A stretch of 64,000 bases of DNA from Bacteroidota bacterium (GTDB lineage: Bacteria; Bacteroidota; Bacteroidia; CAILMK01), in NCBI GenBank assembly GCA_013288555.1, contig JABDBQ010000009.1, positions 1,391 to 65,390 on the forward strand, written 5' to 3'. This document shows, piece after piece, positions 52,350 to 55,763 of the stretch. The position numbers were made by a program, and so were the translations under genes. Position 1 is the first letter of the stretch; every line of letters begins with the position of its first letter. A model generated the notes under the pieces. The model was not told the DNA's origin. It did not search any database and worked only from the letters and a program-made list of their open reading frames with translations.

Positions 52350-55300
52350 TTACACCACTACGTTCACAATCTTTCCTGGGACAACAATAATCTTTTTCAG
52401 AGGGTTGCCATCTGTCCATTTTGAAAGATCCATGTTTTTGATTTCATCTTCAACCTGCTCTTTGGAGAGACTTAAAGGCAATTCAATTTTAGCACGCAGT
52501 TTACCATTGACAGATACCGGATATTCAAAACTGTTTTCGGCGGTATAGCTTTCGATATAAGCAGGATAGGGGGCATAAGCCACAGAAAGACTGTTGCCGA
52601 GTTTTTCCCATAATTCCTCTGCAATATGGGGTGCAAATGGCGAGATCAATATCACCAGCGGCTCCAGTATCTCCTTTTTATGACATTGGTATCCACCCAG
52701 ATCATTTACGGCAATCATTAATGAACTGACGCATGTATTGAGATTGAAACGCTCTATATCATCTTCTATCTTTTTGATGGTTTTATGAAGGGTTTTCAGT
52801 TCTTCGGCATTGGGTTTATCTTCATTTACCAGCCAGTTCCCATCCCGGTCATAAAACAGTCCCCAGAAACGCTTCAAAAAGCGGCTTACCCCATCTATAC
52901 CCTTGGTATCCCAGGGTTTTGATTGTTCTATCGGCCCCAGAAACATCTCGTACATCCGGAAAGCATCACATCCATATTTTTCAATCACTTCATCCGGGTT
53001 GATGACATTGTATTTGGACTTAGACATTTTTTCGACTTCGGACTTTGTTCTGAATTGATCTGAGCCTTCTCCGGTTTTAGTAAAATTACCATTTTGCCAA
53101 AAACCACCTTCACATTTAAATATGAAATCCTTATAATCTGTTCTCCATTTAATAAATGCATCTATGTCCAAAATCGAATTATCCACTAATGAAACATCAA
53201 CATGAATTTCTCTTGTATCATCCTTTAATAATTCTGAACTGATAAAATAATAATTCTCTATACCCTGATCATTTATTCTTTTATCAAGGCTTATTTTTTG
53301 TGATACTCCTTGTATCATCCCCTGATTAATCAATTTCTTAAACGGCTCTTTGGTGCTTACCAGGCCCCTGTCAAACAAAAACTTATTCCAGAACCGGGAA
53401 TAAAGCAAATGCCCTGTAGCATGCTCGGCGCCTCCGATATAGAAGTCAACATTTTTCCAGTATCGCTCTTTGTCTTTGTCAACAAAATCAAAGTCATTAT
53501 CAGGATCCATATACCTCAGATAATACCATGATGAACCTGCCCATCCCGGCATGGTGTTCGTCTCGCGGCGGCCATCAGGTGTGTTTACCCATCTATCAAC
53601 GGAGGCAAGTGGAGATTCTCCGGAGCCGGTGGGTTTATAGCTTTCTACTTCAGGCAGTTCAACCGGTAATGCATCAAAAGGAACAGGATAGGGGAGACCA
53701 TTTTTATATACAATCGGGAAAGGCTCACCCCAATAGCGCTGCCTGCTGAAATTGGCATCACGCAAACGATAATTTGTCTTCATTTTTCCGAGTCCGTCCA
53801 GTTCTATTTCATTGATAGCACGTTTTATGGCCTGGTCAACCAGTAAACCATTCAGGAAGTCAGAGTTTACCAGGTAGCCTTCCTTGGCATCATAACTGGC
53901 TTCTTCCACATTTCCGCCCTCCACGACTTCAATTATCGGCAGGTTGAAATGTTTTGCAAAAGCCCAGTCCCGGCTGTCATGTCCCGGTACGGCCATAATG
54001 GCCCCTGTACCATAATCTCCCAGAACATAATCAGCAATCCAGATGGGAATTTCTTTTCTTGTAAAAGGATTTATCGCATAAGCCCCTGAGAAAACACCAC
54101 TTACTTTGGTTTCGGCCTTTCTTTCCCTTTCAGATTTTAATTTGGCTTGGGCAACATATTTTTCAACCTCAGATTTTTGGTCCTGACTGGTAATAACAGA
54201 AACAAGTTCATGTTCAGGCGCGAGAACCATAAAGCTGGCACCAAAAATAGTATCAGGGCGGGTGGTGAAGATGCGGATTTTCGCCTCACCCCCAGCCCCT
54301 CTCCCCGAGAGAGGGGAGCCAGAGTCAGACGTACTTTGTACGTCTTCCGTATTCTCAGCCCCGAACCTCCCTTGCATTCCCCCCCCCTCCATCGGAGAGT
54401 GGCCGGGGGTGAGGCCATTTGCCAGATTAAGCCTTTCTTTGATTTGTATTAGAACATTTTCCAAATCGTTAATCACTTCTTCATTGGTGAACCTGATAAC
54501 ATCGAACCCAATTTGGTTAAGGATTGAAGTCCTGAATTCGTCTTGTTCCTTTTGTGAGTTGTGAATTTCGCCATCAACTTCAACAATCAGTTTTTTTTCA
54601 AGACAAACAAAGTCAGCGATATATTTATCAATGGCATGTTGCCTCCGAAACTTGAAACCCATTTTACTGTTTCTCAGCGCTTCCCATAATATTTGTTCTG
54701 CCTCCGTTTGTTCTTTTCTGTTTGTGCGTGCATTAGTTTTTAGCGTGCCCCAAATTGTTTTATCGGAGGTCATGTATCCTGGGTCATTCGCCTCACCCCC
54801 GGCCCCTCTCCCAGGGAGAGGGGAGCCAGAGTCAGACGTACTTCGTCCGTCTTCCGTATTCTCAGCCACGAAAGTCCCTTGCATTTCCCCCCTCTCCATC
54901 GGAGAGGGGCCGGGGGTGAGGCGAAAATCAACCTCTGCCCCTACTGATTTTCCAATCCAGTTGGTCTGCATGTCTTTTACCGCCTGTGGCCAGTCGATAT
55001 CATTAAGATCTTGCAAGAGTCTGTCGGCATAAGCGGTGATGCGCAAAAACCATTGTCTCATTTTACGCTTTTCAACAGGGTATCCACCACGCTCGGAAAC
55101 ACCGTCTTTTACTTCCTCATTGGCAAGCACTGTTCCAAGAGCTTCACACCAGTTCACTTCACTCTCGCCAATATAAGCCAGTCGGTAATCCATTAATATT
55201 TTCTGCTGTTCCGCTTCGCTGAAATTGTTCCATTGCTCGGCAGTAAAATAAGTATTGCCATTCTTTTCAAAATCCCTGATCAGGTCATTAATATGTTCAG

Positions 55301-55763
55301 CACAGTTGGTTTTCGGATTGTACCAGCTTTCAAACAACTGGATAAAAATCCATTGCGTCCATTTGTAAAATTTGGGGTCTGAGGTTTTTACTTTTCGGCT
55401 CCAGTCGAACGAAAGACCAATCTTTTTCATCTGGTCTTCGTATCGTGCGATATTTTTATCTGTAAAACCTTCAGGATGGTTTCCGGTATCAATAGCAAAC
55501 TGTTCTGCAGGCAACCCAAAGGCATCATAGCCCATGGGATGCAGTACTTCAAATTGCTTGTTTCTTTTAAAACGCGCCACGATATCAGAAGCAATATATC
55601 CCAGCGGATGCCCTACATGGAGGCCTGCACCTGATGGATAGGGGAACATATCAAGCACATAATACGGCGGTTTTTCGGGGTTTTCTGTGGCTTTAAAAGT
55701 CTCATTCTTTTCCCAGAATCGTTGCCATTTCTGTTCTATTTCATTCGGGTTATACTGCGGCAT
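52350..55763 (-). CDS. leuS: Leucyl-tRNA synthetase carrying a 218-codon in-frame foreign insertion
   Basis: Contains the class I HIGH variant (HVGHPLGY), the KMSKS motif (EKMSKSKYN) and TTRPDT at the CP1 entry. It is 1137 aa, or about 919 aa once the insertion is removed. Confidence 0.9.
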   Translation of the reverse strand: MPQYNPNEIEQKWQRFWEKNETFKATENPEKPPYYVLDMFPYPSGAGLHVGHPLGYIASDIVARFKRNKQFEVLHPMGYDAFGLPAEQFAIDTGNHPEGFTDKNIARYEDQMKKIGLSFDWSRKVKTSDPKFYKWTQWIFIQLFESWYNPKTNCAEHINDLIRDFEKNGNTYFTAEQWNNFSEAEQQKILMDYRLAYIGESEVNWCEALGTVLANEEVKDGVSERGGYPVEKRKMRQWFLRITAYADRLLQDLNDIDWPQAVKDMQTNWIGKSVGAEVDFRLTPGPSPMERGEMQGTFVAENTEDGRSTSDSGSPLPGRGAGGEANDPGYMTSDKTIWGTLKTNARTNRKEQTEAEQILWEALRNSKMGFKFRRQHAIDKYIADFVCLEKKLIVEVDGEIHNSQKEQDEFRTSILNQIGFDVIRFTNEEVINDLENVLIQIKERLNLANGLTPGHSPMEGGGMQGRFGAENTEDVQSTSDSGSPLSGRGAGGEAKIRIFTTRPDTIFGASFMVLAPEHELVSVITSQDQKSEVEKYVAQAKLKSERERKAETKVSGVFSGAYAINPFTRKEIPIWIADYVLGDYGTGAIMAVPGHDSRDWAFAKHFNLPIIEVVEGGNVEEASYDAKEGYLVNSDFLNGLLVDQAIKRAINEIELDGLGKMKTNYRLRDANFSRQRYWGEPFPIVYKNGLPYPVPFDALPVELPEVESYKPTGSGESPLASVDRWVNTPDGRRETNTMPGWAGSSWYYLRYMDPDNDFDFVDKDKERYWKNVDFYIGGAEHATGHLLYSRFWNKFLFDRGLVSTKEPFKKLINQGMIQGVSQKISLDKRINDQGIENYYFISSELLKDDTREIHVDVSLVDNSILDIDAFIKWRTDYKDFIFKCEGGFWQNGNFTKTGEGSDQFRTKSEVEKMSKSKYNVINPDEVIEKYGCDAFRMYEMFLGPIEQSKPWDTKGIDGVSRFLKRFWGLFYDRDGNWLVNEDKPNAEELKTLHKTIKKIEDDIERFNLNTCVSSLMIAVNDLGGYQCHKKEILEPLVILISPFAPHIAEELWEKLGNSLSVAYAPYPAYIESYTAENSFEYPVSVNGKLRAKIELPLSLSKEQVEDEIKNMDLSKWTDGNPLKKIIVVPGKIVNVVV
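54280..54416. repeat. Palindromic GC-rich module A
   Basis: TTCGCCTCACCCCCAGCCCCTCTCC...GGAGAGTGGCCGGGGGTGAGGCC. This is a direct copy of module B. It has internal hairpins (CCCCTCTC/AGAGGGG and AGACGTA-CTTTG-TACGTCT). Confidence 0.8.
54417..54773 (-). other. DUF559 (Vsr-like, PD-(D/E)xK endonuclease) domain-coding core, fused into the leuS frame
   Basis: MTSDKTIWGTLKTNARTNRKEQTEAEQILWEALRNSKMGFKFRRQHAIDKYIADFVCLEKKLIVEVDGEIHNSQKEQDEFRTSILNQIGFDVIRFTNEEV. It retains its own ATG but has no stop codon. Confidence 0.75.
54788..54929. repeat. Palindromic GC-rich module B
   Basis: TCGCCTCACCCCCGGCCCCTCTCC...GGAGAGGGGCCGGGGGTGAGGCGA, with 23-nt perfect terminal inverted arms. Confidence 0.8.

Follow-up and report, generated by a model that had tools for sequence, protein, structure and literature searches.

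INTRODUCTION

Inteins are selfish elements that lie in frame in conserved housekeeping genes, including those for aminoacyl-tRNA synthetases and helicases, beside highly conserved motifs; they are transcribed and translated with the host gene, carry a nuclease domain and show a patchy distribution with signs of loss. On our reading, the same description fits an insert in leuS, the gene for leucyl-tRNA synthetase (LeuRS), which we analysed in a 64-kb stretch of DNA from a Bacteroidota genome (64,000 nucleotides of contig JABDBQ010000009.1, assembly GCA_013288555.1; this whole stretch is called the window below). The insert is a cassette in which a DUF559 nuclease core is situated between two GC-rich palindromic modules. 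Unlike inteins, the cassette has no Hint domain, no N-terminal Cys or Ser, no C-terminal His-Asn and no +1 nucleophile, is evidently not excised, and is bounded by palindromic DNA repeats, which inteins do not have.

Palindromic repeats inserted in frame in protein-coding genes are familiar from the Rickettsia palindromic elements (RPEs). RPEs and the modules of the cassette are alike in being palindromes of ~100–150 nt that occur in and between genes, are inserted in frame, are translated into an extra surface peptide and are tolerated in essential proteins. RPEs contain no gene and are by description a different family in a different phylum, whereas some of the repeats reported here carry a nuclease open reading frame (ORF) that is read through. 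RPEs are mentioned in PMC1779305 and PMC10969869. A catalytic domain homologous to that of the cassette is found in the Vsr-like homing endonucleases of the I-Bth0305I family (PDB 3R3P), which also occupy conserved host genes (PMC3239194, PMC2677866); these enzymes are housed in group I introns, inteins or the gap between split-intein halves, have extra DNA-binding regions and match Pfam DUF559 less closely than does the DUF559 structure 3HRL.

Repetitive extragenic palindromic (REP) sequences and their hairpin-forming doublets (REPINs) with REP-associated tyrosine transposases (RAYTs), and MITEs (miniature inverted-repeat transposable elements) with their parent elements, resemble the cassette in that one enzyme gene is located between inverted hairpin repeats and in that gene-less doublets are far commoner. 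The enzyme of the cassette is a PD-(D/E)XK nuclease and not an HUH Y1 or DDE transposase, many of its copies are inside ORFs and, unlike for MITEs, no target-site duplication was seen at the few junctions inspected. The intervening sequences of 23S rRNA with a small ORF (PF05635) are likewise small inserts with inverted repeats in an essential gene, in Bacteroidota and other phyla. They are cut out by RNase III without religation, whereas the cassette has a protein-coding host and frame evidence for read-through. Our literature searches turned up no account of DUF559 cassettes lying in frame, nor of this family of repeats, which is not proof of novelty.

RESULTS

A nuclease cassette in the leuS reading frame

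We conclude that the insert is probably a selfish nuclease cassette that is translated through inside leuS and belongs to a widespread family of palindromic repeats. An earlier note made from the window sequence had described a selfish-looking cassette in an essential and constrained gene without intein or intron machinery, and our Pfam, Rfam and divergence analyses agree with this description. The 1137-aa ORF scored 963 bits as bacterial leuS against a cut-off of 548 (NCBIfam leuS_bact equivalog). For the host part, the ratio of nonsynonymous to synonymous divergence (dN/dS) was 0.059, with dS of ~1, against the closest relative (L003, 86% amino-acid identity), so leuS is an active and strongly constrained gene. 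Because an identical 1137-aa protein is on record (P0121; NCBI, JGI), possibly derived from the window's own source, the ORF is not peculiar to this window copy. The features of the locus are listed below.

52350..55763, minus strand: leuS host gene, one continuous ORF including the insert, 1137 codons
54924..54929, minus strand: host codons GAT TTT (D F), directly 5' of the element, as in relatives L003, L204 and L205
54282..54923, minus strand: whole element, 642 nt, 214 codons (R...A), bounded by terminal inverted repeats
54789..54923, minus strand: 5' (gene-sense) palindromic module, 135 nt, GC 66%, encoding RLTPGPSPMERGE...SPLPGRGAGGEA
54417..54788, minus strand: DUF559/Vsr-like PD-(D/E)XK nuclease core, 372 nt, 124 codons, GC 37%
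54282..54416, minus strand: 3' (gene-sense) palindromic module, 135 nt, GC 66%, encoding GLTPGHSPMEGGG...SPLSGRGAGGEA
54276..54281, minus strand: host codons AAA ATC (K I), directly 3' of the element
54249..54269, minus strand: conserved host motif FTTRPDT (TTCACnACnCGnCCnGAnAC), consensus of occupied leuS copies

The ORF and the match to Pfam PF04480 confirm that a nuclease insert lies in the leuS frame between WIGKSVGAEV(DF) and (KI)RIFTTRPDT, as had been claimed; the extra segment is preceded by ...WIGKSVGAEVDF / ...NWIGKSVGAEVDF and followed by KIRIFTTRPDT.... The earlier note was right that the insert is a stop-free multiple of 3, and its size of 654 nt or 218 codons has to be corrected, since this figure includes the host residues DF and KI: the element is in frame and free of stop codons through all of its 214 codons (642 nt). 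LeuRS without the element is 923 aa long, compared with the ~919 aa first estimated and with 920–931 aa in the nearest relatives without extra loop length. The element ends in the terminal repeats CGCCTCACC...GGTGAGGCG (CGC CTC ACC ... GGT GAG GCG), and matching boundaries were found in the leuS copies L001, L002, L003 and L106, where the host sequence …TTT is followed by CGC or AGC, CTC ACC … GGT GAG and a final GCN.

The proposed layout of module, core and module, with the modules as direct copies of each other, was recovered. The three parts measure 135 + 372 + 135 nt, each a multiple of 3, and two direct 136-nt copies (54280–54415 and 54787–54922), each with inverted arms, are 92% identical. 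The module arms are 34–37 nt long and not ~23 nt as first given. The 5' module consists of the direct repeat D1 and the inverted repeat I2 with 37-nt arms that are 95% complementary, and its DNA hairpin has an energy of −51.6 kcal/mol (z = −10.3); the 3' module consists of D1, 92% identical to the 5' module, and the inverted repeat I4, with a DNA hairpin of −39.5 kcal/mol (z = −6.3). Outside the element, leuS has a GC content of 42%, compared with 66% in the modules and 37% in the core. The arm motif occurs four times within the 64-kb window, each time in the element, where none is expected by chance, and no further GC-rich hairpin island was found elsewhere in the window. The Pfam match within the nuclease core spans about 54429–54743, and the core has an internal ATG (MTSDK...) and no stop codon, both as previously described.

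The structure of the full 1137-aa protein was predicted with AlphaFold2, a check that had been suggested, at a mean predicted local distance difference test score (pLDDT) of 84. The pLDDT was ~90 in the LeuRS parts and 78–96 in the nuclease core, and fell below 50, with no secondary structure, at residues 292–328 and 450–491, which are the segments encoded by the 5' and the 3' module, respectively. The predicted arrangement, a folded core with disordered modules, is that of an extra nuclease domain on two flexible tethers.

Codons for D F also stand before the solo module of L003, as GAT TTC, and before the short L204 and L205 loops, and an identical AAA ATC CGC follows the solo module in L003. 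The FTTRPDT motif lies 6–15 nt downstream of the insertion point and would be a candidate recognition sequence if the nuclease homes. In alignment, the insertion site corresponds to F-PVEGKEV-R, a short turn in LeuRS of Thermus thermophilus, and it is the start point of crystallised stand-alone editing-domain constructs, which together place it at the first beta-hairpin, at the N-terminal boundary of the connective peptide 1 (CP1) editing domain. The loop, taken as the segment from NWIGxS to xTTRPDT, was measured in the 120 nearest LeuRS clusters; of the 111 in which it could be parsed, 96 had 17–21 residues there. DUF559 was found at the loop in 6 of the 120 clusters, one of which is P0121, the window's own protein, and repeat modules without a nuclease were found there in two. 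This variable domain-boundary hairpin, the disordered modules around a folded core and the frame continuity across the whole family (see below) all fit the earlier proposal that the cell tolerates the extra domain.

DUF559 cassettes embedded in other host genes

A protein search with the insert returned DUF559 relatives of 45–60% identity at the same LeuRS site and in TsaB, guanylate kinase (Gmk), chorismate synthase (AroC) and MetH, among other proteins. A metagenome profile scan with the nuclease core yielded 587 relatives, from which the best 80 were analysed. The host frame remained open for at least 60 codons beyond the nuclease in 63 of these 80 copies, and continuity of the frame was found in every leuS copy read at the sequence level. 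Three intergenic copies, L102 (from a Prevotella metagenome-assembled genome), L085 and L093, have their own start (ATG) and stop, the stop in L102 being TAA-TAG. With 63 of 80 relatives kept in the host frame without a stop, and intergenic copies supplied with a start and stop of their own, removal before translation is unsupported, as is the undescribed DNA- or RNA-level route of removal that had been offered as the second possibility.

The loop occupied in the window accounted for 20 of the 80 metagenome loci, and a second LeuRS site accounted for three. Altogether, at least 25 independent assemblies have DUF559 in the LeuRS loop that it occupies in the window, L001, L002, L106 and L113 among them. 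Hosts recognised by Pfam or direct reading were MetH, RecG, a methylmalonyl-CoA mutase/MeaB fusion, Acs, a DNA2-like helicase, iPGM, HsdM, a type ISP enzyme, CinA, Tgt, DegT, UDP-GlcNAc 2-epimerase (Epimerase_2), a PurQ-like amidotransferase, IspG (GcpE) and IspF (YgbB). The search of public genomes for copies inside ORFs, which had been recommended, thus found many in-frame copies, in at least 25 unrelated host genes with N- and C-terminal fusions among them; splicing is unable to explain such fusions. A search of 1.8 billion representative proteins gave ~24,000 matches at E ≤ 1e-3, and at least ~40% of the best 150 representatives were longer than 250 aa.

The simple form of the cassette is 5'-GCCTCACCCC-N-CCCCTCTCC-loop-GGAGAGGGG ... 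CCCCTCTCC-loop-GGAGAGGGG-N-GGGGTGAGGC-3', with the nuclease ORF between half-arms, and was found in L001, L002, L106 and L113, all in leuS. Each flank in the window is instead a complete arm-spacer-arm doublet. Among the intergenic copies, arm motifs were found on both sides in L102 and L093 and on one side, upstream, in L085; the arms of L093, from Patescibacteria, are reversed and match the inner arms of the window. Exact inverted repeats, 9 nt or longer, linked the 100-nt flanks of 43 of 72 DUF559 loci, compared with 1 of 72 distal controls, and the flanking hairpin or arm sequence differed between the DUF559 lineages at these 72 loci.

Several further hosts and proteins were observed in the same searches. 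The second LeuRS site is located just before TMPGWAGSSWY (L138, L140, L178). Two copies in valyl-tRNA synthetase (ValRS; L160, L183) have DUF559 at the pre-CP1 strand homologous to the leuS site (ATTRPET); cross-homing between these homologous LeuRS and ValRS sites was considered and rejected, the ValRS nucleases not clustering with those of LeuRS. Isoleucyl-tRNA synthetase (IleRS; L147, L176) and methionyl-tRNA synthetase (MetRS; L168, L187) are further synthetase hosts. The top-scoring representative for the nuclease core, P0241 (377 aa), contains three tandem DUF559 stretches. Free DUF559 proteins of ~132–135 aa (P0011, P0052, P0112) are named 'methylmalonyl-CoA mutase', 'methionine synthase' and 'RecG', names that were probably transferred from fusion proteins and are then an annotation artefact of the cassettes. 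In two LeuRS proteins, P0195 (1041 aa) and P0239 (1039 aa), another insert of ~115 aa interrupts the leucine-specific region. Its motif FDFYLPDKELIVEIK is PD-ExK-like, and it has no GC-rich arms and no Pfam match; possibly LeuRS has here a further nuclease-like insertion that is unrelated to the first.

Identity and selection of the nuclease

Pfam DUF559 (PF04480) matched residues 63–167 of the insert with E = 4e-37, covering profile positions 3–108 of 109, and the insert had no other Pfam content except a weak match to MTES_1575. A profile of 15 core sequences, the window's first, matched two structures: the DUF559 structure PDB 3HRL, with E = 2e-31, and, with E = 3e-5, 3R3P, which is the catalytic domain of I-Bth0305I, a homing endonuclease. 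The active-site residues D56 (ADF), E67 and D69 (EVD) and H73 are all present in the window core and are kept in 67–68 of 68 embedded copies (~99%), the same as in free-standing copies. Between pairs of embedded cores, the proportion of nonsynonymous differences (pN) was 0.11–0.27 versus 0.57–0.83 for synonymous differences (pS), similar to the host flanks. Judged by these comparisons, the embedded nuclease cores look functional and under purifying selection; a relic that was merely tolerated would be expected to lose its surface catalytic residues. In one LeuRS with an insert at the same loop (P0189, 1065 aa), the nuclease has lost its N-terminal part and has KQQY in place of RRQH; because this nuclease is degenerating, some embedded copies do decay. 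VsrA, a DUF559 protein of Caulobacter, has an in vivo functional link to a cytosine methyltransferase and damages DNA in vivo (PMC12907096).

The peptides encoded by the modules had dN/dS of 0.6–1.0 against the orthologous module and of 1.3 between the two modules of the window, ratios by which the module peptides evolve neutrally. Synonymous divergence of the modules (0.35–0.57) was lower than that of the host (0.98), a sign that the modules are conserved at the nucleotide level or share a more recent ancestor. The small central hairpin of the module is GACGTAC-AAA-GTACGTC in the window and TCCGGAC-GAA-GTCCGGA in L003, so that the pairing is kept and the sequence changed. A Dcm-like CCWGG loop was considered as a Vsr target and set aside; it is present in some hairpins and inconsistent across copies. 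A phage vector was dropped after a search of IMG/VR that gave 13 distant relatives (~39% identity), and membership in a defence system was rejected, with one weak match in PADLOC (E = 0.002) and only families of unknown function in PHROGs.

The modules as a repeat family

The tripartite element holds as anatomy and is not a unique unit, its modules belonging to an independent repeat family. In a scan with one genome per species, the arm motif was found at at least 120 loci. Among the matches listed, the loci were mostly in Bacteroidota and also in Chloroflexota, Planctomycetota, Patescibacteria, Acidobacteriota and others; DUF559 was beside the arm at 6 of the loci, and 58 of 148 arm matches were inside long open frames without a nuclease. 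The peptides encoded by arms are of the kind SLTPxPSPxGEGS...PLSxGEGxGVRL. In an 8-kb locus of Prevotella veroralis DSM 19559 (L086), the arm motif occurred six times in forward and four times in reverse orientation, in nearly every intergenic gap. As far as these sequence matches go, the modules are a large independent repeat family, located in and between genes, that has a DUF559 nuclease in a minority of cases only. The arms of L086, which is a cultured strain, are often combined with other repeats. A LeuRS of 1057 aa (P0134) has two repeat-only in-frame inserts, one at the window's loop and the second between ...FWGLFD and ...ELKALH, with insert peptides such as LTPSPSPKERG and PPLGGFRGV.

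These repeats raise a possible, if on balance unlikely, alternative in which the mobile unit is the palindromic repeat family itself and DUF559 is its trans-acting nuclease, comparable to RAYT with REP and REPIN or to an autonomous element with its MITEs. The nuclease would then have reached leuS through an already tolerated repeat copy and not by recognition of leuS, and movement would occur by repeat-targeted cutting and gene conversion. The spread of the arm motif over many phyla with so few adjacent nucleases, the nuclease-free copies in open frames and the filled intergenic gaps of P. veroralis are all in its favour, together with the position of most DUF559 copies exactly at the spacer of a solo doublet, the association of DUF559 with arms even in Patescibacteria (L093) and the solo module in the closest leuS relative. 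The two modules of the window are also closer to each other (92%) than to that solo module (~75%), which would fit import or conversion from a donor cassette.

The distribution of the nucleases themselves is harder to reconcile with mobile repeats. The nearest neighbour of a nuclease had the same host gene in 47 of 54 cases (RecG 4/4, Gmk 5/5, MetH 4/5), a host-gene specificity that free hopping would erase, and the insertion sites adjoin highly conserved host motifs, like classical homing sites. The arm sequences differ between DUF559 lineages, and the 64-kb window contains no other repeat copy. No direct duplication of the target site was seen at the few junctions inspected (window, L001, L002 and L102), where terminal inverted repeats are clear.

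Turnover at the insertion site

At the same codon position, the 86% relative L003 has one 132-nt (44-codon) module and no nuclease, and the 73% relatives L204 and L205 have an 8-codon loop, AGCACCGCCGGCTCCGGTGAGGCT, which by its sequence looks like remnants of both terminal arms. We read these states as a series in which a full cassette became a solo module and then a footprint, or as the same series run backwards. Because the modules of the window resemble each other more than they resemble the orthologous solo module, they were duplicated, converted or imported after the lineages split. Directly after leuS, L204 has an ORF of 118 aa for a 23S_rRNA_IVP protein (PF05635; L204:3371-3727), a further family of small genes that often occur as inserts.

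Replacement of cassettes was found at Prevotella gmk, where flanks of 96–98% DNA identity surround different cassettes: DUF559 as a fusion with gmk, this DUF559 cassette in an ORF of its own that overlaps, and a PDDEXK_3 cassette. From these alleles, it seems that small nuclease cassettes of different kinds compete for a single locus. The gap between yicC and gmk in Prevotella is occupied either by a DUF559 cassette or by a PDDEXK_3 (PF13366) gene with its own AT-rich repeats (L219:897-1331 versus L220:1392-1958).

Several observations weigh against a selfish cassette that is translated within leuS and still spreads. Host and nuclease divergence were compared for 18 same-site LeuRS copies, in which nuclease divergence tracked host divergence weakly (Mantel r = 0.31, p = 0.009) and no pair had a nuclease much more similar than the host; this comparison speaks for a long vertical residence, and a recent transfer into leuS has no direct sign in it. 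Between lineages, the place of insertion in the loop shifts by 0–13 residues, a variation that repeated independent insertions and later indels would explain equally well. The 63 of 80 metagenomic copies with an open host frame amount to 79%, a share that is probably inflated because the scan profile was built mostly from embedded copies, and synonymous sites were near saturation in most pairs of the selection tests. The double-module layout of the window is unusual, most copies having a half-arm on each side, and any origin for it is a conjecture. Closely related hosts with very different nucleases were also looked for and were not seen among the 18 copies.

The vertical pattern would also suit a frozen relic or a domesticated domain, that is, an ancient and immobile insertion that was kept since only a precise in-frame deletion is viable or since the host uses it, for example in Vsr-type T:G mismatch repair; we hold this to be quite unlikely. 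The deep pairwise divergence of the relatives (45–60% identity) and the methyltransferase link of Caulobacter VsrA agree with it, and purifying selection on the core fits a host-useful function as well. The patchy occurrence among the nearest LeuRS clusters (DUF559 in 6 of 120, modules only in two, and 96 of 111 loops of 17–21 residues) argues against it, and the solo-module and footprint alleles indicate that loss is possible and tolerated. A LeuRS-specific function is at odds with at least 25 unrelated host genes and with N- and C-terminal fusions, a relic would lose catalytic residues that are ~99% conserved, and the cassette at Prevotella gmk was replaced recently.

Read-through and removal

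Removal of the insert before the enzyme matures, by a new arm-guided RNA splicing or processing or by a new protein-splicing chemistry, is a far-fetched explanation for this locus. The minimum-energy RNA fold pairs the outer arms with each other, and likewise the inner arms, and brings the host junctions together (−280 kcal/mol, z = −10.7), as the earlier note had foreseen for the mRNA, and the central module hairpin keeps its pairing while its sequence changes between orthologous modules. This fold is a trivial consequence of inverted repeats, however, so the arm pairing carries no evidence of function, and hairpins are expected from DNA-level inverted repeats alone. The open frame of the relatives and the lengths of the window's sub-pieces, all multiples of 3, would be needless if the insert were removed before translation, and N- and C-terminal fusions are not explicable by splicing.

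Known machinery was also searched for. An Rfam search of 53800–55400 at permissive E-values gave only sub-threshold miRNA-like hairpins of 22–26 bits versus gathering thresholds of 87–100, and a known intron or ribozyme was ruled out on this basis. An intein was ruled out by Pfam content, with no Hint or intein domain in the insert, and by the junction residues: R is the first residue of the insert (S in relatives) and ...GGEA its end, position +1 holds K, I, V, N or T in the different copies, and no conserved Cys, Ser, Thr or Asn nucleophile was found at the junctions across copies.

That the insert is an assembly chimera, or leuS a decaying pseudogene, is hardly credible: the assembly is of the metagenome type and GC-rich palindromes can mislead assemblers, but at least 25 independent contigs, which stem from different projects, have this architecture at the same loop, an identical protein is on record (possibly from the window's own source), and the 1137-codon frame is intact with a strongly constrained host part.

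DISCUSSION

The preferred reading remains that of a selfish nuclease cassette translated within leuS, and the mechanism by which it would move is what we infer from the alleles and repeats described above. LeuRS would be made as a protein of ~130 kDa in which a folded nuclease domain is attached by two flexible linkers of ~45 residues, with aminoacylation and editing intact, and expression of the nuclease would be coupled to an essential gene. The nuclease would cut alleles or repeat copies that lack the element, and the element would thereby be kept in the population; repair would then copy the cassette in, by homing or gene conversion, with the flanking modules possibly acting as homology arms. 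Candidates for the mode of spread are classical homing at the FTTRPDT-adjacent site and gene conversion that the nuclease triggers between copies of the repeat. Recombination of one direct module with the other would delete the nuclease and leave a solo module, as in the closest relative, and further deletion would leave an arm footprint. Gene conversion between repeat copies would explain the doublet-nuclease-doublet layout as well as solo modules left after the nuclease was lost.

As for a homing site, the insertion point is at a conserved position beside FTTRPDT, and occupied, solo-module, footprint and short-loop alleles exist. In the earlier description of the element as 'homing-type', the nuclease cassette is borne out; homing would be a further step, and the same-site LeuRS copies are mostly vertical.

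Tentatively, and with somewhat more doubt than assurance, we propose a previously undescribed class of selfish elements in which a nuclease occupies the niche of inteins without splicing and persists as a translated inserted domain, with palindromic ends in a dual role. These ends would serve as cis-sites or homology arms for spread and would at the same time code for disordered linkers that make the insertion tolerable. The proposed class would be present in dozens of housekeeping genes across Bacteroidota, including those of four class I aminoacyl-tRNA synthetases.

If this is true, selfish nucleases would have a third way into essential genes besides introns and inteins, namely to stay in the protein, tethered by linkers that the repeats encode. 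The cassettes would show how far LeuRS, ValRS, IleRS, MetRS, MetH and RecG tolerate large domain insertions, and would represent a natural route for new domains into old proteins. Annotation pipelines mislabel such fusions, and the compact, possibly site-specific nucleases could be of interest as tools. DUF559, among the larger families of unknown function, would gain a concrete role, and the widespread GC-rich palindromic repeat of Bacteroidota would gain a candidate partner enzyme.

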